Below the pieces are notes generated by a model. It was not told where the DNA came from, did not search any database, and was given only the letters and a program-made list of their open reading frames with translations. A stretch of DNA of 64,000 nt from Cytophagales bacterium (GTDB lineage: Bacteria; Bacteroidota; Bacteroidia; Cytophagales; CCMP332): NCBI GenBank assembly GCA_040218795.1, contig JAVJQT010000011.1:33157-97156 (forward strand), in the 5' to 3' direction. Positions 31,465 to 45,805 of this stretch are shown here, piece by piece (within the stretch, counting starts at the first letter, position 1; the number at the start of each line of letters is the position of its first letter). Made by a program: the position numbers and the translations under genes.

Positions 31465-31899
31465 ATGGCAGATGTGCACGATCCCGTTACCCGGTCATAC
31501 AATATGAGCCAGGTTAAAAGTAAAAACACGAAACCTGAATTGTTACTTCGAAAGAAACTATATTCCATGGGAATTAGATATAGAATAAACAACCAAAATA
31601 TTATCGGAAAACCGGATATCACAATTCAAAAATATAAATTGGTAATCTTTGTAGATGGAGATTTTTGGCATGGTCGTAATTGGCAAATAAAGAAATTCGA
31701 AATAAAAAGTCGTAGAGAATTTTGGTGGCCGAAAATTGAAAAGACCATTCACAGAGACGAAAAGGTAACTCACACCTTAAAAAGTAATGGTTGGACAGTA
31801 GTTAGAATTTGGGAAAAAGATATTTTAGAAAATTCAGACATTTACATTAATAAAATTTACAACATAATTAAGAAGCGGAAGAATGAAGAAATACAGTGA
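31465..31899 (+). CDS. vsr: very-short-patch repair endonuclease
   Basis: MADVHDPVTRSYNMSQVKSKNTKPEL...GKPDI...IFVDGDFWHG is a classic Vsr signature. Overlaps the downstream m5C methyltransferase gene by 17 bp. Confidence 0.9.
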   Translation: MADVHDPVTRSYNMSQVKSKNTKPELLLRKKLYSMGIRYRINNQNIIGKPDITIQKYKLVIFVDGDFWHGRNWQIKKFEIKSRREFWWPKIEKTIHRDEKVTHTLKSNGWTVVRIWEKDILENSDIYINKIYNIIKKRKNEEIQ

Positions 31900-33103
31900 G
31901 ATCAAAAAAGATTTAAAATTTAGTCAAAAAAACTTTGATGATACACGATTATCGGCTTTTACACATTATTTGCAATCCAGTAATAATGGAACAAATTCAT
32001 ATTTTATTGAATCAGCTTCTGATTATTACAATGAAAATGCTCCTGATGTTCATGATACTTCTCCTCTTGATTTGCTTTTACCAATAAAATGGGATATTCC
32101 TTTTCCTCCTCCTGATAAACCTAAATTTAAATTTATAGACCTTTTTGCCGGCATTGGAGGTTTTAGAATTGCAATGCAGAAATTAGGTGGTAAATGCGTC
32201 TTCACAAGTGAATGGGACGATAAAGCTAAAATAACATATGAAGCAAATTTTGGTGAAGTTCCATTTGGTGATATTACTCTTGAAGGAACTAAGAAATATA
32301 TTCCTGATGGTTTTGATATATTATGTGCGGGATTTCCTTGTCAAGCATTTAGCATTGCCGGAAAAAGAGGTGGATTTAATGATACCAGAGGCACACTATT
32401 TTTTGATGTTGCTGAAATAATAAGGCGAAAAAGGCCAAAGGCTATTTTTCTTGAAAATGTAAAGGGATTGTTTAATCACAGAAGTGGGCGTACACTTGCG
32501 ACAATCCTTAATGTTTTAAGAAATGATTTAGACTATTTTGTTCCTGAACCAAAAATTATAAATGCAAAAGATTTTGGAACTCCCCAAAATCGAGAAAGAA
32601 TATATATAGTAGGATTTGACAAAAAATTGGGTATTTCAGAATTTGAATATCCAGAACCTTTAAATCAAAATGTAGCTTTCGAAGACATCAAAGAGAATAA
32701 TGAAGTTTCAGTAAAATATTATTTGTCTACACAATACCTAAAGACCCTACGTGAACACAGAAAACGTCATGAAAGTAAAGGTAATGGATTCGGTTTTGAA
32801 ATAATTCCGGATGATGGCACGGCCAATGCAATAGTATGTGGCGGAATGGGAAGAGAAAGGAATCTTGTTATTGACGATCGATTGACCAATTTCCAACCAA
32901 TTACACATATAAAAGGAGAAGTTAATCGTGAAGGTATACGAAAAATGACTCCTCGTGAATGGGCGAGACTGCAAGGTTTCCCTGATACATTTAAAATCCC
33001 GGTTGCAGATGCTTCTGCCTACAAACAATTTGGGAATTCGGTGGCTATACCAGCAATTCAAGCCACTGCCGAAGTTATCTTGATGGCATTAAATGTTTCT
33101 TAG
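31883..33103 (+). CDS. dcm: DNA (cytosine-5)-methyltransferase
   Basis: Motif I FIDLFAGIGGF, motif IV GFPCQAFS, motif VI ENVKGL, motif VIII QNRERIYIVG and motif X QFGNSVAIP. Confidence 0.95.
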   Translation: MKKYSEIKKDLKFSQKNFDDTRLSAFTHYLQSSNNGTNSYFIESASDYYNENAPDVHDTSPLDLLLPIKWDIPFPPPDKPKFKFIDLFAGIGGFRIAMQKLGGKCVFTSEWDDKAKITYEANFGEVPFGDITLEGTKKYIPDGFDILCAGFPCQAFSIAGKRGGFNDTRGTLFFDVAEIIRRKRPKAIFLENVKGLFNHRSGRTLATILNVLRNDLDYFVPEPKIINAKDFGTPQNRERIYIVGFDKKLGISEFEYPEPLNQNVAFEDIKENNEVSVKYYLSTQYLKTLREHRKRHESKGNGFGFEIIPDDGTANAIVCGGMGRERNLVIDDRLTNFQPITHIKGEVNREGIRKMTPREWARLQGFPDTFKIPVADASAYKQFGNSVAIPAIQATAEVILMALNVS

Positions 33104-33755
33104 AAAAATAAAAGATATTCGAATTATTGGTGATGAGATTCATGCCATTCGTAAAACTAAAATCACTACTAAAGAACTTGAACTACAGATTTCAGACTTA
33201 CAATATTCGGGTCAAAAATTGGAATTAGAGGAAAATGTAGAGCAAGCACAATTACCTCCATTTGTTCAAGTATTTTACTATTATTTTTTTGCCTTTCTTA
33301 AAATTCCTTCTGAAGTCGAATTTTGGAATATTTACAATAGCTGGATTAATCCGAAAAAAAAGGAAACTATTGTTATAAAAAACAAAAAATTAAAAACTCT
33401 AAATATAAAATCCAGACTTTTAAGAACTTATCCATCATTGATTAGAGACCTTCATTTTTTGTACTTATTGAATGAATCACGAAAGTTCGATTCAATTGAA
33501 TATTCAATGCATCGTGACTATTTTGATGGTATTGATTTACGAGTTAGGTATAAAAATGTTGATTCTTATATTTCACTTTATATTAATACAGAAAGAGGAG
33601 ATTTCTATAAAAAGAGAAAAACGAAAAGGCATGATTATTCTGTTATAAATGAAATAGAATTCAAAGTAAATTTTGATGAATTAAAAAAATGCGGTAGTAT
33701 TTATTTATTAAAGGAATTTCACGTTCATACTTTGATAAACTTAATTGATGAATAA
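33093..33755 (+). CDS. hypothetical protein inside the R-M operon (function unknown)
   Basis: 220 aa, Lys/Asn/Ile-rich. Overlaps both neighbours by 11 bp, which suggests translational coupling. No motif I can name confidently. Confidence 0.5.
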   Translation: MFLRKIKDIRIIGDEIHAIRKTKITTKELELQISDLQYSGQKLELEENVEQAQLPPFVQVFYYYFFAFLKIPSEVEFWNIYNSWINPKKKETIVIKNKKLKTLNIKSRLLRTYPSLIRDLHFLYLLNESRKFDSIEYSMHRDYFDGIDLRVRYKNVDSYISLYINTERGDFYKKRKTKRHDYSVINEIEFKVNFDELKKCGSIYLLKEFHVHTLINLIDE

Positions 33756-34857
33756 AGAAAAATTAACTGGAAATAAGGGTGAATGGAGTGAGTTATATGT
33801 TTTATTCAAACTTTTGGCTGAAGCAAAGCTTTATTCAGCTGACGAAAATCTAAATAGAACTCATAATAATGTTGATGTTAAATCAATAAATAGAGTTGAT
33901 TCAGTCAGACAACTCATTTATGAAATTGATGATGGAGATGGAATAATAAATATTATTGATGGATTAAGAAATGAAAAAATAAAATCTTTAACTAAGACGG
34001 AAGCAATTAATCTTTCAACTAAATTAGTTAATGAAATTAAAAGTGGTGCAGGAAGAGCATTTTCCGTAAGTAAAAGATTAAAGGCTCTTCTCAATAAGTA
34101 TGAAATAACTAAAGTCTCTGAAAAATCATCCAGTAAAAGCGATATTGATATTAAAATTTATGATCCAAAACATTCTTTGACAAGTCAGCAAAAGTTCAGT
34201 ATAAAATCCCTTTTAGGAAGTCAACCAACATTGTTTAATGCAAATAAAACCACAAATATAATTTACAAACTAACAGGTCAAAATGGTAGTCCACTTACTG
34301 GTAAACAAGTCGAGGAAATTAATAAAATTGGTAATCCTTATAAGTATATTAAACGGACTAAGGATATAGTTAATAAAGGATTTAAGATTAAATTTCATTC
34401 CTTTCAGGATGACACATTTAAGTTAAATCTTCAATTAATAGACAGTGATTTACCAGTGATCATTGCTAGTATCGTATTGGATAAATACCTCAAAGAGATA
34501 ACAAAAATTACTGATGTAATTCAGGAATTGAACAAATCAAACCCTATGGGATATGATTTGACACAAGGACATAATTTCTATGAATATAGAATTATTAATT
34601 TCTTGATTGAATCAGCCTTGGGAATGACCTCAAAAACTGTTTGGACTGGGGAATATGATGTAATTGGTGGAATTATAATCGTTAAGCCAAATGAAGAAGT
34701 TCTATGCTATCATTTGATTGACTTTAATAAATTTAAAACTTATTTAAAAAACTCTTGTCGAATTGACAATCCATCAGGCTCTAAAATGGGCTATGGTAAT
34801 GTTTACAAAGACAATGGAGAAACATTTATTAAGTTGAATTTTCAGATTAAAGCGTAA
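33745..34857 (+). CDS. HpaII-family type II restriction endonuclease (likely)
   Basis: The N-terminal GNKGEWSELYVLFKLLAEAKLYSADENL and the ~370-aa size match my recollection of the RE_HpaII family. Operon context with an m5C MTase and Vsr fits. Confidence 0.65.
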   Translation: MMNKEKLTGNKGEWSELYVLFKLLAEAKLYSADENLNRTHNNVDVKSINRVDSVRQLIYEIDDGDGIINIIDGLRNEKIKSLTKTEAINLSTKLVNEIKSGAGRAFSVSKRLKALLNKYEITKVSEKSSSKSDIDIKIYDPKHSLTSQQKFSIKSLLGSQPTLFNANKTTNIIYKLTGQNGSPLTGKQVEEINKIGNPYKYIKRTKDIVNKGFKIKFHSFQDDTFKLNLQLIDSDLPVIIASIVLDKYLKEITKITDVIQELNKSNPMGYDLTQGHNFYEYRIINFLIESALGMTSKTVWTGEYDVIGGIIIVKPNEEVLCYHLIDFNKFKTYLKNSCRIDNPSGSKMGYGNVYKDNGETFIKLNFQIKA

Positions 34858-35018: not shown

Positions 35019-35060
35019 CGGATTCTTCAATTCATGTTAATTTCTAGAATCCGTTTTTTA
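35019..35060 (+). terminator. rho-independent terminator ending the R-M operon
   Basis: CGGATTCT-(19 nt loop)-AGAATCCG is a perfect 8-bp stem, followed by TTTTTT. Confidence 0.65.
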
Positions 35061-35182: not shown

Positions 35183-36472
35183 ATGGAAATTTTTGAACAA
35201 GAACTTATATCCAAACCACAACTTGTAAAGAAATTTTACCTAATTGAATATTTCTATATCTTACTTAAAAGTGTTGATAATAACAAAGATCTTAATTCAA
35301 TTTTCGAATCCTTTAGAACGCTTAAGCACAAGTATCAGTTAGGTGAATCCAAGTATAAAAAATTAACACTTACGGATGAGGATCTTTCAAACAAGCAATT
35401 AACTAGATATATCTATACCCTGCAGCAAGTAATAAGTGAAGCTTTGGACTACGGGCTGATAAAAGAAGGTAAGGAAAAAAACACAGTCGAGTTAACAAAA
35501 AAAGGAGCTAACTTAATAGAATACTTTGATACTGATCGACAGATGTATAGTGAAATGCTATTAAAATTGATGGAGCATAAACACTATGCATTTTACCACC
35601 TCGTAAATTTATGCTATCGTGTCAATACTTTTAAGCAGGGCCTTCTAATATTACCTATATATTCTCCACTAAAGCTTGGTTTTGTAAAGAAAGAGATTAC
35701 CAAAACTGGACATATCTTAGCATATTTAGATAAGCTTACACACCAACTTCAAAATGATTTAAAGAAGTACACTGGTAAGAACAAAAGGCTAGGTAAGATC
35801 CAAAAAGAATTAGTAACTGAATTGGTTTCTGATGGTTTTCTTATAAGTGAAAATCCAAAATCTAATTTTGATCTTTCTCGATATAATTCGATTCTAAGAA
35901 AAATACGAAGTTATTGGTTGAACTTTATTCTTAAGAATATTTATGATTACACTTACTCTTTTGATACTTTTAATATTTGGGCAGAACGGGGTAAACAATT
36001 GGGTATATTGCAGTCAACTGAGTTTTATCCAGGAGTAAATGGTAGGATGGTATATCCTACATCAATTCTCAAAAAGGCGGTTAAGAATAATGATTTTAAA
36101 GAAGTATATTCATATACAAATAGTGATAAACTTTATTTGCACAAACCGAAGTGGAAGGATAATCAAGAAAAATTTGTTGATACATTGCATTCTTCATATT
36201 TTGAATTAAGGAAGAATAGAAATAATAATTTGTTTGTTAACCTTACTGATTTGCGTGAGAAGGTTTGTTATAGGTTAAGGATTCCCACTTTTGTATTCGA
36301 TGATTTCTTAAACAAAACATATTTATTGAATTTAAAAGGGCAATTGAAAATTCAAATATCTTTAGAGGCTGATAGGTTGCCTCAAGAAACTAGTGCTATG
36401 TATCTTAAAAGAGAGCCTGTGCTAATCAATGGTAAGTATAAAAATATTATCGCAATAGATTACAAAAAATGA
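35183..36472 (+). CDS. hypothetical protein, possible winged-helix content (gene 1 of the four-gene operon)
   Basis: 429 aa. The segment QQVISEALDYGLIKEGKEKNTVELTKKGANLIEY looks MarR/wHTH-like. Its stop overlaps the next start (ATGA, 36469-36472). No family recognised. Confidence 0.6.
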   Translation: MEIFEQELISKPQLVKKFYLIEYFYILLKSVDNNKDLNSIFESFRTLKHKYQLGESKYKKLTLTDEDLSNKQLTRYIYTLQQVISEALDYGLIKEGKEKNTVELTKKGANLIEYFDTDRQMYSEMLLKLMEHKHYAFYHLVNLCYRVNTFKQGLLILPIYSPLKLGFVKKEITKTGHILAYLDKLTHQLQNDLKKYTGKNKRLGKIQKELVTELVSDGFLISENPKSNFDLSRYNSILRKIRSYWLNFILKNIYDYTYSFDTFNIWAERGKQLGILQSTEFYPGVNGRMVYPTSILKKAVKNNDFKEVYSYTNSDKLYLHKPKWKDNQEKFVDTLHSSYFELRKNRNNNLFVNLTDLREKVCYRLRIPTFVFDDFLNKTYLLNLKGQLKIQISLEADRLPQETSAMYLKREPVLINGKYKNIIAIDYKK

Positions 36473-37875
36473 GCAAGCTATTAAAAAAAGCTAAACAAGA
36501 ATTTAAAGATGAAAAAGGAAAATATGAGATTTATAATCTTAGAGAAAATCCTTTTCCTTCAACACCTATAGTAAATCAAGAAGATCAAGATATTCGATAT
36601 AACGGAGGAATATTTGAAGAGAAGATAAGACAAGAAGAGTGGAAAAAAGTTTATGATAACTTTTTAAAAGTTTCTCAAAGCAATCCTAACCATCTAAGAA
36701 TAGGCTATATATTGGATACTTCATACGTAGGAAGAGGGAATGGCAAATCCTCATTTTGTGTAAATCTTTTAAAAAGTATAAATGAGCAGTTTTGCTTAGA
36801 TATTTCTAATGAAGAGAATAAGTGCTTCGGATTATATGTTTCGCCTGAGCCAAGTGGTCGAACGAAATCATTCTATAATTTGGTTGATATCATATTTGAA
36901 AACTTAATTGATAATGATATCATTGATTCTTGTTTGGCGACGCTAAGACTAGAGGCACTCTTAAAAATTAAAGATGATTTTGATGTTAGTCAATTTGATT
37001 CGGACCAACAAATTGTAGATAAATTGAATTCCCCTGAATGGTTCAAAACAAATGAGATTGAGGTTGCTAAGGTTGCCAAAGAAATATTAAAGAATGAGTA
37101 TCTATCAAAGTTATCTCAAGGGTTTCCTTTGTTTAGAGATAGAAATAATTTTTTTGGAACAACTATCACTACAAAGGAAGATTTCAAGATATACTATTCT
37201 AATCTAAAAAAAGGACAACAAAGAATCGATTTTGTTTTCACTGACTTGGTTAAATTCTTTTTAGCCGCTGGATTTAATGGAGCATATATCTTTATAGATG
37301 ATTTTGAGAGAATACCTGATTTTCAAAGCGATAGACAAAAGAGAGAATTTGCTTTAGAGATTAGAACCAATTTCTTTGATGGCGTTTCAACTAATGCAAA
37401 ACTAGGGTTCTATAATTTATTTCTTATTCTTCATGCAGGAGTACCAAGATTGGTAGAAAAAGCTTGGGCTGAAGCTGGAATGGAGCAGAGAAGTCCAATT
37501 ATAACTGCAAGCCCAACATCAAACCATATAATCTTTTTTGAAAAGCTCACACCACAACATGGGGTCCTACTAATAAAGAGGTATATGGATGAATATAGGA
37601 TTAAACAAGAAAATGATAAAAATGAAAAATCAGTCAAACCCTTTACTGATGATGCAATACAAAGAATAGGGGAGATAACTGAAATGAATGCTGCAGGTAT
37701 ATTACAAAAAGCTCATCATGCATTAGAGAAAGGTGCAGAAAACAAAGTGGGCGAAATTGATTCTGAATATATAAAAGAATTATTTGGAGAAATAAAGAAG
37801 GTGGAACTAGAAAGTACAGATTTTGAGGATGAGGATGACACCGTAGATCTATTTAAAAAATCTGAAGAAGACTAA
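36469..37875 (+). CDS. divergent P-loop NTPase (gene 2 of the four-gene operon)
   Basis: Walker A-like GRGNGKSS (nt 36730-36753) and Walker B IFIDDFE (nt 37288-37308), about 185 aa apart. N-terminal ENPFPSTP resembles the lead-in of ORC/ExeA-type AAA ATPases. Acidic C-terminal tail. Confidence 0.7.
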   Translation: MSKLLKKAKQEFKDEKGKYEIYNLRENPFPSTPIVNQEDQDIRYNGGIFEEKIRQEEWKKVYDNFLKVSQSNPNHLRIGYILDTSYVGRGNGKSSFCVNLLKSINEQFCLDISNEENKCFGLYVSPEPSGRTKSFYNLVDIIFENLIDNDIIDSCLATLRLEALLKIKDDFDVSQFDSDQQIVDKLNSPEWFKTNEIEVAKVAKEILKNEYLSKLSQGFPLFRDRNNFFGTTITTKEDFKIYYSNLKKGQQRIDFVFTDLVKFFLAAGFNGAYIFIDDFERIPDFQSDRQKREFALEIRTNFFDGVSTNAKLGFYNLFLILHAGVPRLVEKAWAEAGMEQRSPIITASPTSNHIIFFEKLTPQHGVLLIKRYMDEYRIKQENDKNEKSVKPFTDDAIQRIGEITEMNAAGILQKAHHALEKGAENKVGEIDSEYIKELFGEIKKVELESTDFEDEDDTVDLFKKSEED

Positions 37876-37889
37876 AACGCATCGCATTT

Positions 37890-38261
37890 ATGGATAAGTT
37901 TTGTTTAACTAAAAGGCAGTGTAAACAGCTTCTTGACAATGAGCTATTCGGAATATTAGATGAAAGTGAAGATGACCCTGACTTAATTGCAATTATAGAA
38001 AGAGCAAGAGATTATTATGAAATAGAAATAGTTGTGTTTAATTATTTCATTTCAAAACTTTTGGAACAATATCAAAAAAAAGATGCGTCAAAGTGCAATA
38101 AGGTAATTGAGTATATAAGTGAAATAGATAAAAAGATGTTCGCAACACTAGAAGAGTTCGATTCAAAATTCATAGACTTGATGATGACGAGAAGTATGCC
38201 TAGTAAACTCAACACTCTTGAAGAGGATCTATTGGAAATAAGAAACTCTTTTCATGGCTAA
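37890..38261 (+). CDS. small acidic helical hypothetical protein (gene 3; possible antitoxin or adaptor)
   Basis: 123 aa. Starts 14 bp after the ATPase stop, and its stop overlaps the PIN gene start by 8 bp. No recognisable DNA-binding motif. Confidence 0.55.
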   Translation: MDKFCLTKRQCKQLLDNELFGILDESEDDPDLIAIIERARDYYEIEIVVFNYFISKLLEQYQKKDASKCNKVIEYISEIDKKMFATLEEFDSKFIDLMMTRSMPSKLNTLEEDLLEIRNSFHG

Positions 38262-38700
38262 GAGATATGTCATTGATACCAATTCGTTGATATCCTATTT
38301 TTCAGATATTTTTGGGGAGCCTTCAAAAATATCGAAATCCTCACTTAGTATAATCAATTCCGCCTTTCTTCAGGAAAATGTAGTTTTAATCATCCCTAAT
38401 GTTGTTTTCGTTGAAATATTTAAAAAGTGGTATCGGAGTAATGAGTGGTCAGAGAAAATTAAGTATGAAGTATATCAAAAGGTAATCTCGAGGCCTAATA
38501 TCGAAATTCGCTCAATTGATATTGAGTTAATTGAATACTTTGTGAGTATTACAGAAATTGAGTCTAAATACAATTTCGACAATCATGATAAGCAAATTTT
38601 AGCATGCGCAATGATGCTAGATTGTGATTTGATTACTTCAGATCAAAAGCTAATGAGGTATAATAGAAGAATGAATGTTGTTCCTGCCATACATAACTAA
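38254..38700 (+). CDS. PIN-domain nuclease (gene 4)
   Basis: YVIDTNSLISYF (first Asp), VVFVEIF (Glu), NHDKQILACA (Asp) and LITSDQKL (Asp) give the PIN acidic quartet in the usual order and spacing. Confidence 0.75.
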   Translation: MAKRYVIDTNSLISYFSDIFGEPSKISKSSLSIINSAFLQENVVLIIPNVVFVEIFKKWYRSNEWSEKIKYEVYQKVISRPNIEIRSIDIELIEYFVSITEIESKYNFDNHDKQILACAMMLDCDLITSDQKLMRYNRRMNVVPAIHN

Positions 38701-38840: not shown

Positions 38841-39299
38841 CATTTAGGCTTACTTCACTTGTTAAGAATATCCTTATTTAAATGGCCGCAAATCCCTTAA
38901 CATAAAACACAATGTTATTTTACTTTCTTCGCTTTGCTCGAATGTCAAATAACGATTTTATGTTAAATATCCGGCTTATATCACAGCATGTAAATAACTA
39001 TCAGTCTACATTTAGGCTAACTTCAATTGTTAAGAATATCTTTATGTTTATGGCCGCAAATCCCTTAACATAAAACACAATGTTATTTTACTTTCTTCGC
39101 TTTGCTCGAATGTCAAATAACGGTTTTATGTTAAATATCCGGCTTATATCACAGCAGGTAAATAACTATTAGTCTACATTTAAACTAACTTCACTTGTTA
39201 ATAATATCTTTATGTATATGGCCGCAAATCCCTTAACATAAAATCGTAAACGTTATCGTACTGCGTAGCGATAACTGATTTTATGTTAAATATCCGGCT
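38841..39299. repeat. tandem array of three 168-bp units, each with a conserved imperfect hairpin
   Basis: Units start at 38841, 39009 and 39177. Hairpins span 38884-38975, 39052-39143 and 39220-39298. The common stem is TTAACATAAAA/TTTTATGTTAA with a GCCG/CGGC clamp. The apical stem is GTTATTT/AAATAAC in copies 1-2 and GTTATCG/CGATAAC in copy 3. Confidence 0.9.
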
Positions 39300-42996: not shown

Positions 42997-43329
42997 TCAA
43001 TAATCGTTTATTTTATATTGACGACCCTGTCTACATAATTCGGTGTATTCCGCATGTGTTCCAATCCAGGTCACATACAGATGTACCTTTTTAAATCCGA
43101 AAAAATATTCACATATCATTCTATATTTATTCCCTCCTATATTGAAAACGACTCTATTTGTGCCATTTCCTAAAATATCGGCAGAATTGAAGCTTTTAAT
43201 GATATCTAATGGGTTAATCCAATCAGCGTTCTTCATAATATTGAACCATGACTCAAATCCAGCTAAACTCTGATTATTAGTTTCAATGTAATTTTCAATG
43301 GATTGCTTCTTAATGAGTCTAACCTTCAC
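42997..43329 (-). CDS. higB: HigB-family (RelE-fold) mRNA interferase toxin
   Basis: NRVVFNIGGNKYRMICEYFFGFKKVHLYVTWIGTHAEYTELC is a typical HigB_toxin signature. Confidence 0.8.
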   Translation of the reverse strand: MKVRLIKKQSIENYIETNNQSLAGFESWFNIMKNADWINPLDIIKSFNSADILGNGTNRVVFNIGGNKYRMICEYFFGFKKVHLYVTWIGTHAEYTELCRQGRQYKINDY

Positions 43330-43630
43330 ATTTCATATATCAAAATTAACAATAAGTTTACATAATGTAAACATTTATTCTGATTTCTGGAATTCTCAAT
43401 TATTCATGAAATCATAATTGGGTTTTAAAATTAGCCATCATCCTTCTTTAAAAATCAATCATTGTATGAAGCCCGTCTTTGATCTATTCCATACTGTTTA
43501 TTAATTAGGCTTATTAAGATTTTAATCTGCATCTCAATTCATTTTTAATTCCTAATTCCTAATTCCCAATTTTTAGCCCTTCACACATTCATAAAAAAAA
43601 ATCTGTTTTCAGTCCTTATTTTTGCGGCCT

Positions 43631-45805
43631 ATGGAATTACAGGCCATGGCCAAATTGGCCGCCAGCTACGTAAATACGACCAGCAGACATATATTTCTCA
43701 CGGGAAAGGCCGGTACGGGCAAAACGACTTTTCTCAAATACATTATCGATCATACGCATAAAAAAGCGGTAGTTGCAGCTCCAACAGGTATTGCTGCCAT
43801 CAATGCGGGCGGTGTTACCCTGCATTCGCTTTTGCAATTGCCTTTTGGGTCTTTTATTCCTGAAAATATAGCCTTAGAGCAAACAAATGACCGGGTTTCC
43901 ATCCCAAAGACCCTTTTTCAGGACTTTAAGTTTAATGCCAGCAAAAGACAGCTGATCAATGAAATTGAGCTTTTAATCATCGATGAAGTCAGTATGCTTC
44001 GAGCCGATCTTCTCGATTGTATCGATTTTACTTTGCGTTACCTCCGCAAAAACGCCTCTCCTTTTGGTGCGCTTCAAATCCTGTTTATCGGTGATTTAAT
44101 GCAATTGCCTCCGGTGGTAAAAGAACATGAGAAAAGACTGCTGAGCCATTATTATCCGAGTCTTTACTTTTTTTATGCCAAAGCACTTGAAAACAATGCA
44201 CCCATACATGTAGAGCTTAATAAAATATTCCGGCAGGAAGATCAGGATTTTATCGATTTGCTAAACCGATTGCGTCACAATGCACAAACAAGGGAAGATC
44301 TTAATTTCCTTAATGGCTATTACAATCCTGATTTTGCCGAAGCCGGGGAAGCGGGTTTTATCCATTTGACCACACATAATTATCGCGCGGATAAACTCAA
44401 TCAGCAAAAACTGAGTGATTTGGATGTGCCGCTTTATACCTTTCATGCAGAAATTGATGGCACATTTCCCGAGAGCATGTTTCCTACTTCTGAAGAACTG
44501 CTTTTAAAAGAAGGCGCACAGGTCATGTTCATCAAAAACGATCCGAGCGGTGAAGGGCAATTTTTTAACGGTAAAATCGGCTTGATTTCTAGTCTTACGC
44601 AAGAGGAAATATGGGTCCAATTTGAAAACGGTTCCGAAGTGCTGGTGAGTCCCTATGTCTGGGAAAACAAAAGATACATTCTCGATAAGGAAAGCAATGA
44701 AATTGAAGAAAGCTATCTCGGAAGTTTTAAGCAATACCCTATCAAATTAGCCTGGGCGGTGACGATCCATAAAAGTCAGGGTTTGACCTTTGAAAAAGCC
44801 ATTCTGGATCTCTCGGGCACCTTTGCCCCCGGACAACTTTACGTCGCGCTATCCCGATTGACATCGCTGAAAGGCTTGGTTCTATCTTCTCCCCTTCCCG
44901 AAAATCCTCCGAAAATTGACGAAAGTCTGGCGCGTTTTAATGCCACACAATTGGAGCAAAAAGAACTGGAAGAAAATCTGGAAGACAATCAAAAGGCCTT
45001 TGTATTGGAGCTTGGACAGAATGCCTATGATCTTTCGGCATTGCACAATAAACTAAAGAATCATCAGAAAAGCTTTAACAAAGATGAAAATCGCTCAATC
45101 AAACAGAAATACAGCGAATGGACAAAAGCGATTCTGGATGAAATTCAGGAATTAAAACCCATTGGAGAGGGATTTTCAAAGGAAATTCAACGCATTCTAG
45201 GCCATGCGGATTATCTCGATCGCTTAGCTGAAAGAAGCATAAAAGCAGAAGACTATTTCCTCGATAAACTCCTTCCCATAGCGGAAAAGATTCAGGCCCA
45301 TGCTTCCGAAATAGCAAAGGAAAAAAAGGTAAAGGCTTATCGCAAAGAGCTGGAAGATATCAGCGATGTATTGATTCGAAAGATTCAGGATATAGAACGC
45401 TTTTCATATTTAATCGGGAATTTGAAATCGGGCGCTGATTTTAGAGAAAAATTTAAATCCCGTCTCAGTAAGGATCTGATATCCGGGAAATTAAAAAAGC
45501 CGCCCAAAGATAAAACCCCTACGGCTGAAATCACCTTCAAATTATTTCAGAATGGCAAATCTATTAAGGAAATAGCAGCAGAAAGAGCCTTGGCGGAAAG
45601 CACCATCGAGGGCCATTTGGCTGAATATATAAAAACCGGAAAAATTCCCATCGAAGATCTGGTATCCAATGCCAAAATCAAGAAAATACAAAAGGTGCTT
45701 GAATCCGATGCTGTAGGCTTAGCCGAAATCAAATCCAATCTTCCCAAAAGTTATTCCTATGGAGAGATCAAAATGGTAATTGCTCATCAGAATAGATTAA
45801 CTTAG
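43631..45805 (+). CDS. PIF1/RecD-like SF1 helicase with a C-terminal HTH domain
   Basis: Walker A LTGKAGTGKTT, Walker B LIIDEVSM and motif VI-like AVTIHKSQGLTF. The C-terminus SIKEIAAERALAESTIEGHLAEYI is a helix-turn-helix. The ATG at 43631 is preferred over the TTG at 43622. Confidence 0.85.
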   Translation: MELQAMAKLAASYVNTTSRHIFLTGKAGTGKTTFLKYIIDHTHKKAVVAAPTGIAAINAGGVTLHSLLQLPFGSFIPENIALEQTNDRVSIPKTLFQDFKFNASKRQLINEIELLIIDEVSMLRADLLDCIDFTLRYLRKNASPFGALQILFIGDLMQLPPVVKEHEKRLLSHYYPSLYFFYAKALENNAPIHVELNKIFRQEDQDFIDLLNRLRHNAQTREDLNFLNGYYNPDFAEAGEAGFIHLTTHNYRADKLNQQKLSDLDVPLYTFHAEIDGTFPESMFPTSEELLLKEGAQVMFIKNDPSGEGQFFNGKIGLISSLTQEEIWVQFENGSEVLVSPYVWENKRYILDKESNEIEESYLGSFKQYPIKLAWAVTIHKSQGLTFEKAILDLSGTFAPGQLYVALSRLTSLKGLVLSSPLPENPPKIDESLARFNATQLEQKELEENLEDNQKAFVLELGQNAYDLSALHNKLKNHQKSFNKDENRSIKQKYSEWTKAILDEIQELKPIGEGFSKEIQRILGHADYLDRLAERSIKAEDYFLDKLLPIAEKIQAHASEIAKEKKVKAYRKELEDISDVLIRKIQDIERFSYLIGNLKSGADFREKFKSRLSKDLISGKLKKPPKDKTPTAEITFKLFQNGKSIKEIAAERALAESTIEGHLAEYIKTGKIPIEDLVSNAKIKKIQKVLESDAVGLAEIKSNLPKSYSYGEIKMVIAHQNRLT

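Follow-up and report, generated by a model that had tools for sequence, protein, structure and literature searches.

Introduction

Orc/Cdc6-type AAA+ ATPases that are paired with multi-winged-helix readers and coupled to nucleases have been predicted computationally to form conflict systems, among them SspB-SspC of SspABCD (Rakesh, Aravind & Krishnan, NAR 2024; PMC10853773). PIN-domain effectors act in validated defence systems, namely HEC-03 (Payne et al., bioRxiv 10.1101/2024.01.29.577857), DS-3 and DS-5 (PMC13092281). In Menshen (NsnABC), the ParB-family protein NsnA is accompanied by NsnB, an SMC-like ABC ATPase, and by NsnC, a dead PIN domain fused to a separate effector (PMC12065111). 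In this study, we analysed a cassette of four adjacent genes, termed g1 to g4, in a 64,000-nucleotide stretch of contig JAVJQT010000011.1 of a Cytophagales bacterium; the whole stretch is referred to as the window, and all coordinates not assigned to another locus are positions in it. The cassette fits the known pattern of an NTPase, a reader and a nuclease and represents no categorically new mechanism. Its proteins are new families, three of the four being without a name, a profile or a solved relative. We regard it, with a probability of roughly 55%, as a self-contained mobile conflict module that most likely serves anti-phage or anti-mobile-element defence by abortive infection. The four genes, taken from the open reading frame (ORF) listing and, for g4, also from Pfam, are as follows.

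35183-36472, + strand: g1, 429 aa, winged-helix protein (predicted)
36469-37875, + strand: g2, 468 aa, AAA+ ATPase (predicted)
37890-38261, + strand: g3, 123 aa, acidic protein
38254-38700, + strand: g4, 148 aa, PIN-domain nuclease (predicted)

The g1/g2 junction is an ATGA overlap at 36469-36472, g2 and g3 are separated by 14 bp, and g3 and g4 overlap by 8 bp. An earlier note on this DNA, made from the sequence alone, had described four same-strand ORFs with these junctions, and the ORF listing reproduces all of them exactly.

Comparison with described systems

The Orc/Cdc6, multi-winged-helix and nuclease neighbourhoods of PMC10853773 are the nearest concept to the cassette. In both, a mobile operon joins the pair to a nuclease, and a second Orc/Cdc6 paralogue, present in published operons, likewise occurs in the sister operons described below. 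The published pairs are combined with restriction endonuclease (REase), HerA/FtsK, ASCH, KAP or phosphorothioation partners, whereas the cassette carries PIN, a domain that the article, in the passages found by text search, mentions for other gene neighbourhoods and not as an Orc/Cdc6-coupled effector. As far as the ATPases are described there, g2 also lacks their C-terminal winged helix and inactive-REase insert, and g1 is conserved whereas the readers are termed 'rapidly evolving'. Pfam and Foldseek searches did not link g1 to SspB, DndG or FokI by sequence or by a significant structural match (FokI, E = 0.62).

None of the four proteins matched PADLOC-DB v2.0.0 at E values up to 1, and this database covers Gabija, Septu, Lamassu, PARIS, Zorya, Hachiman, Wadjet, AVAST, BREX, DISARM, Qat, Mza, Iet, RADAR, Menshen and the PDC candidates. 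The contention of the earlier note that the operon fits no named system is upheld by this result, by Pfam, NCBIfam and PHROGs, where PIN was the only match, and by the homologues, which are annotated as 'hypothetical protein'. A literature search combining AAA+/Cdc6, PIN, winged helix and defence returned no description of the four-gene cassette.

Several individual systems resemble parts of the cassette. HEC-03, whose anti-phage activity has been validated, likewise joins an NTPase to a separate VapC-like PIN protein without a VapB-type antitoxin (bioRxiv 10.1101/2024.01.29.577857); it consists of two genes with an ABC ATPase, whereas the cassette has an AAA+ ATPase and two further proteins, g1 and g3. 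Identity with HEC-03 was rejected on the grounds that the Foldseek neighbours of g2 are AAA+ and not ABC/SMC proteins and that PADLOC gave no match. DS-3 and DS-5 (PMC13092281) differ from the cassette in architecture and gave no PADLOC match either. Menshen (PMC12065111) is similar in that its several genes also bring together an ATPase, a PIN fold and a sensor region of winged-helix type; it was set aside, the PIN of the cassette being intact and stand-alone and its ATPase AAA+, again with no PADLOC match. BrxC/BrxD of BREX and RdrA of RADAR belong to the same broad AAA+ fold class as g2, and 9zll_B and 8hrb are among its top three structural matches. These matches are weak (E ~1e-3), and g2 has 468 aa against ~1200 aa in BrxC and ~850 aa in RdrA. 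Both systems were rejected: the cassette has no PglZ, PglX/BrxX methylase, BrxA/B/L or RdrB deaminase, and neither PglZ nor a methyltransferase recurs in its flanks. A D-E-D-D PIN protein preceded by a small overlapping gene is also the arrangement of VapBC, and a plain VapBC pair was discounted given that no stand-alone pair was found, that g3 has no detectable DNA-binding antitoxin domain and that two large conserved genes lie upstream. Similarly, a Tn7-like TnsC module was rejected, with no transposase recurring in the flanks of 51 loci and no conserved flanking repeats.

Co-inheritance and distribution of the cassette

Scanning 185,579 species, each represented by one genome, yielded 62 loci. 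The order g1-g2-g3-g4 on one strand is kept in all 53 loci that span g1 through g4, and the junctions across the genome loci are mostly overlaps of 1-8 bp or gaps of a few bases, with g3 and g4 overlapping in most. Pairwise identities of the four genes correlate with one another (r = 0.76-0.90; 52 cassettes). The converse test was a metagenome search seeded with the PIN protein alone, which returned 78 loci, 58 of them with at least 700 bp of upstream sequence. In 55 of these 58, g2 lies directly upstream of the PIN gene, and of the other three, two are remnants truncated at the N-terminus and one is cut off by the end of its contig. Therefore, g3 and g4 are not an independently circulating toxin-antitoxin (TA) pair; the earlier note had allowed for the two occurring alone in this way, and no stand-alone pair is present among the PIN-seeded loci.

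Altogether, over 100 independent loci carry the block as one unit. The loci span more than 15 phyla with flanks that are unrelated from locus to locus, and g1 and g2 retain 42-60% identity across phyla. Carriers include Bacteroidota, Cyanobacteria, Chloroflexota, Planctomycetota, Desulfobacterota, Acidobacteriota, Spirochaetota, Cloacimonadota and Melainabacteria, as well as bacteria of the candidate phyla radiation (CPR), Peregrinibacteria, Bacteriovorax, Gemmatimonadota, Chthonomonadaceae, Thiotrichaceae, Clostridia, Victivallaceae and others. The flanks share no recurrent fifth gene; across 51 loci, neither transposase, integrase nor relaxase genes are conserved beside the cassette, and no conserved repeats or ends were found flanking the block. 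The four genes are thus one co-inherited unit that has spread horizontally, and the proposal that they are co-conserved as a block holds in the 53 genome loci, in 55 of the 58 PIN-seeded loci and in the correlated identities. Cassette copies were found neither in 72,556 plasmids and 50,697 phages (tblastn with g2) nor in a scan of IMG/VR.

In metagenome contigs of gut Bacteroidales (L160-L163, L068-L070), the cassette occupies one end of a small integrative mobilizable element as cargo. The other genes of the element encode a tyrosine integrase, HTH_17 excisionase-like proteins, DUF3876 and DUF5712, and RteC is encoded nearby in one of the loci. These copies are the most abundant in metagenomes, forming clusters of 223 and 41 member sequences.

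The genome scan contains two complete exceptions to the four-gene order, a lone g2 beside insertion-sequence-like ORFs (L032) and a decayed copy (L061). In the former, from Calothrix sp. PCC 7716 (L032, 9995-14294), the g2 homologue without g1, g3 or g4 lies beside two 378-aa ORFs. These may encode insertion-sequence transposases, and the arrangement suggests that the cassette has been disrupted. In a further locus (L138, 2055-4271), a truncated g4-like PIN remnant is found beside an opposite-strand ORF of 596 aa with an archaeal-ATPase-like N-terminus (FTGRKEEL...) and a nuclease-like C-terminal region.

The AAA+ ATPase g2

A set of 5.8 billion proteins contains 520 relatives of g2, all of them unnamed and, across phyla, 48-60% identical. 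No credible match to g2 was obtained in Pfam, NCBIfam (June 2026), PADLOC or PHROGs, with Pfam ATPase_2 appearing only below threshold, and sequence and profile searches of the PDB gave nothing significant. The AlphaFold2 (AF2) model, built from a 46-sequence alignment, has a predicted local distance difference test score (pLDDT) of 84 and a predicted template-modelling score (pTM) of 0.79. Its AAA+ core strands are residues 78-83, 119-124, 271-276, 315-321 and 354-357, and a helical insert of 146 residues (125-270) separates the second and third strands. A helical lid at 362-440 is followed by a disordered acidic tail and, unlike in ORC/Cdc6, the model has no C-terminal winged helix. The two nucleotide-binding motifs are located as follows.

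36730-36753, + strand: Walker A variant GRGNGKSS, g2 residues 88-95, with Lys93
37288-37308, + strand: Walker B IFIDDFE, g2 residues 274-280, with Asp277, Asp278 and Glu280

The Walker A motif is non-canonical in having Val87 at the position of the usual first glycine. Among 46 homologues, its residues G88, G90, N91, G92 and K93 do not vary, and G90, G92 and K93 are invariant in the distant relatives too. The Walker B motif is placed at the end of the predicted strand 271-276; D277 and D278 are invariant in the same 46 homologues, D277 also in the distant relatives, and E280 is at least 90% conserved. K93 and D277 are 184 residues apart, in agreement with the separation of ~185 residues given in the earlier note. 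R299, H322, W333 and R341 are likewise invariant in the 46 homologues, R327 and R377 are at least 90% conserved, and H322 and R377 are invariant in the distant relatives also; judging from this conservation, H322, R299, R327 and R377 are candidate sensor or arginine-finger residues. An N-terminal motif, NPFP..D.R.NG, is a further hallmark: L24, P28, F29, P30, P33, D41, R43, N45 and G46 are invariant in the 46 homologues, and P28, F29 and P30 even in relatives at ~20% identity.

Foldseek searches of the PDB with the g2 model returned AAA+ proteins only. The best matches were Aeropyrum pernix ORC2 (1w5t, E = 1.6e-3), RdrA (8hrb), the BrxC N-terminal ATPase (9zll_B), TnsC, Drosophila ORC, RuvB and clamp loaders, with 9zll_B having the highest query template-modelling (TM) score, 0.42. 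The matches are weak and therefore assign a fold class, not a family. On the basis of the model, g2 is predicted to be an AAA+ ATPase with its Walker motifs on the core and a helical lid, and in broad fold class it appears to be of the ORC/Cdc6-BrxC-RdrA-TnsC (ORC/Cdc6-STAND) type. The divergent P-loop ATPase recognized earlier is thus borne out, with the Walker motifs invariant and at the expected sites and an AAA+ fold in the model.

The winged-helix protein g1

The 325 relatives of g1 in the 5.8-billion-protein set are also all unnamed; for g1 and g2 taken together, the identities across phyla in this set are 46-60%. Searches of g1 against Pfam, NCBIfam (June 2026), PADLOC and PHROGs gave no credible match, Pfam HTH_45 being matched below threshold in 2 of 50 family members, and nothing significant was found in the PDB by sequence or profile search. 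The protein is basic, with an isoelectric point (pI) of 9.4 against a family median of 9.0. In the AF2 model (pLDDT 85.5, pTM 0.84) it forms a chain of approximately four winged-helix-like modules with a beta-rich module at residues 276-320. Foldseek searches of the PDB and viral models matched winged-helix pieces only, namely the Cdc6/Orc1 winged helix, Sso10a, PadR, MukE/F and FokI, the last being weak (1fok_A, E = 0.62, TM 0.25). The single winged helix-turn-helix-like stretch that had been noticed in g1 has accordingly become several winged-helix modules in both the model and the structural matches. We propose that g1 is the nucleic-acid-reading subunit of the cassette.

Residues 396-419 of g1 (36368-36439), SLEADRLP.ET.AMYLKREPVL, are among the most conserved parts of the protein, yet have a pLDDT below 50. 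This segment looks like a partner-docking element that would be ordered only on its partner protein.

The acidic protein g3 and the PIN nuclease g4

Among the four proteins, only g4 matches any profile of Pfam, NCBIfam, PADLOC or PHROGs, with PADLOC giving no match even for g4. Its score against Pfam PIN PF01850 is 32.7 bits (cut-off 23.6, E = 1.3e-7), PIN_2 and PIN_4 also exceed their cut-offs, and a profile search of the PDB gave a marginal VapC match only. The acidic quartet D8, E54, D112 and D130 is invariant in 50 homologues. On this evidence g4 is predicted to be a PIN-domain nuclease with an intact active site, the complete PIN quartet read earlier being confirmed by the Pfam match and by the four invariant residues, and we propose that it is the effector.

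An ORF of ~117-138 aa (85 aa in one locus) occupies the g3 position in every locus spanning g1-g4. As had been reported, g3 of the window is a small acidic, probably helical protein (pI 4.64; family median 4.74). Its alignment (52 sequences) has few conserved positions, and no credible match was found among Pfam, PADLOC, NCBIfam, PHROGs or PDB profiles. In particular, no DNA-binding domain of antitoxin type (AbrB, RHH, PhD or HTH) was detected by the Pfam, NCBIfam and PDB-profile searches. Mean pairwise identities across 52 cassettes are 45% for g1, 48% for g2, 24.5% for g3 and 41% for g4. Nonsynonymous divergence (dN) from the closest relatives is 0.24-0.28 for g3, 0.17-0.20 for g4 and 0.09-0.12 for g1 and g2, which makes g3 the fastest evolving of the four, with a dN two to three times that of g1 and g2; the values serve as ranks and are not converted to dN/dS, because synonymous sites are saturated even in comparison with the closest relatives. 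The presence of g3 only alongside PIN fits our proposal that it is a PIN-specific adaptor or inhibitor.

Distant relatives and sister operons

A g2 profile search over 1.84 billion cluster representatives gave 404 matches. Beyond the core family, these include full-length g2 relatives at ~16-27% identity, which keep NPFP..D.R.NG, Walker A and B, H322, W333, R377 and P391-F392. Pfam BrxC_BrxD is matched below threshold in 3 of the 10 distant relatives scanned. Some of the relatives belong to sister operons of two types.

Type 1 (Mesorhizobium australicum and several metagenome contigs): g2 paralogue of 344-396 aa; g1-like protein of 403-415 aa; g2-like protein of 435-437 aa; protein of 229-257 aa
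Type 2: 247-aa homologue of the 229-257-aa protein; g1-like protein of 439 aa (E = 3e-32); g2-like protein of 459 aa
Coordinates of sister operons: L151, 5745-10096; L152, 5544-10013; L155, 2-4068; L158, 2767-6481; L154, 87-3554

The g1-like proteins of type 1 match the g1 profile with E = 4e-10 and 5e-6. The sister operons have neither g3 nor g4, and their 229-257-aa proteins align with each other and share the pattern PETD...IEAK or ELD...ELK. None of the sister-operon proteins matched Pfam, and 9 of 10 were unmatched in PADLOC at E values up to 0.1, the tenth having a chance-level AbiEii match (E = 0.029, 11.8 bits). The replacement of g3 and PIN by another nuclease-like protein in these operons points to the g1-g2 pair as a conserved core with an exchangeable nuclease module.

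Two further observations concern these relatives. A 1679-aa protein with NERD, kinase-like and SF1 helicase (AAA_11/AAA_12) regions is encoded directly 3' of one sister system (L155, 4334-9373). In one branch, three distant g2 relatives of ~520 aa (P0333, P0347 and P0386) end in a Cys/His-rich tail, CxCxCH...CxxC, which suggests a zinc ribbon.

Possible function of the cassette

The earlier note had interpreted the operon as an NTPase sensor or motor combined with a nuclease effector in a candidate defence system. The unity of the operon, the domains and the lack of a named match all stand, and the defence function is what we infer from them. In the mechanism that we propose, g1 would read a nucleic-acid feature of the invader, and g2, which has no DNA-binding domain of its own, would pair with g1 as an ATP-dependent switch or oligomerizing scaffold. 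The acidic protein g3 would tether the PIN nuclease g4 or keep it inactive. Once triggered, the g1-g2 pair would cause g4 to be released or activated, and g4 could then cleave RNA (tRNA, rRNA or mRNA), or possibly structured DNA. Such cleavage would arrest the growth of the infected cell.

Several observations weigh against defence by abortive infection. The phage, plasmid and IMG/VR sets yielded no copy of the cassette, although many defence systems are carried there, and g1 and g2 are more strongly conserved than is usual for immune sensors, whose sequences often diversify. The structural evidence is limited in that g1 has no whole-protein match in the PDB or among viral models (Foldseek) and the Foldseek matches of g2 are weak (E from 1.6e-3 to 1e-2, TM 0.35-0.45). 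The 229-257-aa sister proteins had no credible match in Pfam or PADLOC, and their motif, which would make them PD-(D/E)xK-like nucleases, was read by eye. Finally, a census of the two nearest genes on each side in 51 loci (148 neighbours; raw counts, no background set) gave mostly housekeeping genes, with mad2-like genes (4), methyltransferases (2), AAA_21 (2), Schlafen/AlbA_2 (2) and GIY-YIG (2) as the defence-like ones. Enrichment in defence islands is therefore suggestive for the subclade of the window and weak for the whole family. The position beside a restriction-modification (R-M) system, previously taken as a hallmark of defence, can thus be argued for two copies, that of the window and its closest relative (g2 85% identical), the latter directly following a Type I R-M system with HsdS, HsdR and a YgjP-like gene, and does not extend to the family at large. 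The Anabaena copy is three genes away from an AAA_15/AAA_21 and DUF3226 pair.

Other functions can be considered on the same evidence. The g3-g4 pair might be the VapBC-like part of a multi-component TA or addiction module that mainly stabilizes the islands or mobile elements hosting it and does not primarily confer immunity, with g1 as the regulator and g2 controlling the stability of the antitoxin. The patchy distribution and the carriage of the Bacteroidales copies on integrative mobilizable elements would fit such a module, as would the overlap of g3 and g4 in most loci, which suggests translational coupling; in addition, the nearest Pfam model to g4 is of VapC type, its marginal match in the PDB is a VapC, and g3 is antitoxin-like in being small, acidic and fast-evolving. 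We nevertheless hold an addiction module to be unlikely. With 55 of the 58 PIN-seeded loci carrying g2 and the rest truncated or cut, no g3-g4 pair was found without g1-g2, g3 has no detectable DNA-binding domain, the ~900 residues of g1 and g2 are more conserved than the putative TA pair, and the g1-g2 core also occurs with another nuclease-like partner and without g3. Furthermore, ORC-clade AAA+ proteins are not known to act as unfoldases. The roles in TA and in abortive infection are mutually compatible.

A restriction-like system that targets DNA is a somewhat more doubtful possibility. Here, g1-g2 would scan or load on DNA in the manner proposed for SspB-SspC or BrxC, and PIN would cut structures of the invading DNA, such as flaps and replication intermediates, and so confer direct immunity without cell death. 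The PIN-like superfamily does include 5' flap DNases, but the best match of g4 is a VapC-type PIN and not one of FEN/ExoIX type. The basic, multi-winged-helix nature of g1, the resemblance of g2 to DNA-loading AAA+ proteins (ORC, TnsC and clamp loaders), the PD-(D/E)xK-like protein of the sister operons, a fold typical of DNases, and the R-M systems that adjoin the window copy and its closest relative all favour action on DNA; against this, neither a methyltransferase gene nor any other self-marking gene is present in the cassette, and no mechanism for discriminating self from non-self is apparent. A housekeeping role in a mobile element seems highly improbable. In such a role, g1 would act as an initiator of Rep-like winged-helix type or would select targets, g2 would be an ORC/TnsC/IstB-like loader or regulator in the replication, partition or transposition targeting of an unrecognized element, and g3-g4 would be accessory. 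It would account for TnsC and ORC/Cdc6 among the Foldseek matches of g2, for the UniRef name of one g1 homologue (P0160), which starts 'Initiator Rep protein doma...', and for the Bacteroidales copies within mobilizable elements. Yet the 51 loci have no conserved transposase, integrase or relaxase beside the cassette, just the four genes move, into unrelated chromosomal sites and without conserved flanking repeats or ends, and the plasmid, phage and IMG/VR sets hold no copies. The invariant PIN site and the swap of effectors fit a conflict module better.

If the cassette is indeed defensive, it would represent a new architecture, in which an ORC-like AAA+ ATPase is combined with a separate multi-winged-helix reader, an adaptor and PIN, and would extend the link of ORC/Cdc6-type ATPases (BREX, RADAR and Ssp) to immunity. 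It would also be a compact model for a DNA-reading ATPase switch that licenses an RNase, and would supply profiles for hundreds of 'hypothetical' proteins, including the abundant mobile-element copies of gut Bacteroidales. A broader interpretation, to which we give slightly less than even odds, is that g1 and g2 define an unrecognized superfamily of modules, each a reader with an ORC-like AAA+ protein bearing NPFP..D.R.NG, that drive interchangeable nucleases and constitute an immune family spanning phyla. One arm of this tentative superfamily would use g3 and an active PIN, and other arms a PD-(D/E)xK-like protein, to which a second ATPase paralogue is sometimes added. Should it exist, its proteins would be absent from the four profile libraries searched, and a DNA reader that switches an RNase through an acidic adaptor would be an undescribed logic.

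Genomic neighbourhood in the window

The cassette is preceded by a Type II R-M operon, which lies outside it, and by a hairpin.

31465-34857, + strand: Type II R-M operon encoding Vsr, a C5 cytosine methylase, a 220-aa ORF and an HpaII-family REase
35019-35059, + strand: hairpin with a T6 run, between the HpaII REase gene and g1

The Pfam E values of the operon are 3e-32 for Vsr, 8e-99 for DNA_methylase and 1e-111 for RE_HpaII. The 220-aa ORF, at 33093-33755, overlaps both the C5 methylase gene and the HpaII-family gene and has no Pfam match; it may be an uncharacterized accessory subunit of the R-M operon. The GC content is 0.28-0.33 over 31-39 kb, compared with 0.377 in the whole window and ~0.41 upstream, and HigB is encoded at 42997-43329 (Pfam), 4.3 kb from the cassette. 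The AT-rich setting with a Vsr/Dcm/HpaII R-M operon and HigB nearby, as first described by eye, is therefore confirmed by GC content and Pfam.

The stem of the hairpin, CGGATTCT/AGAATCCG (35019-35053), is a perfect 8 bp in which 35019-35026 pairs with 35046-35053 around a 19-nt loop, and the T6 run follows. Folding gave a free energy of -9.1 kcal/mol (z = -2.9). The perfect 8-bp stem of the earlier note is thus real, although it was passed over by a consensus terminator scan, the 8-nt loop limit of which is exceeded by the loop of 19 nt; the hairpin is probably the terminator of the R-M operon. Upstream of g1, the Bacteroidetes -7 motif TAnnTTTG was not found, and a sigma-70 scan gave matches no more numerous than in shuffled sequence. 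An Rfam scan of 34.5-39.6 kb returned no match.

Just 3' of g4, a 168-bp tandem repeat is present in 2.4 copies with 94% identity (38841-39243), and a further degenerate partial copy reaches ~39299. The repeat was found nowhere else in the window and has no Rfam match. It was rejected as a part of the cassette, being unique to the window locus and absent 3' of the cassette in relatives. Just past the HigBA pair, a PIF1-like helicase of 727 aa, with HTH_40 as its C-terminal domain, is encoded at 43622-45805.

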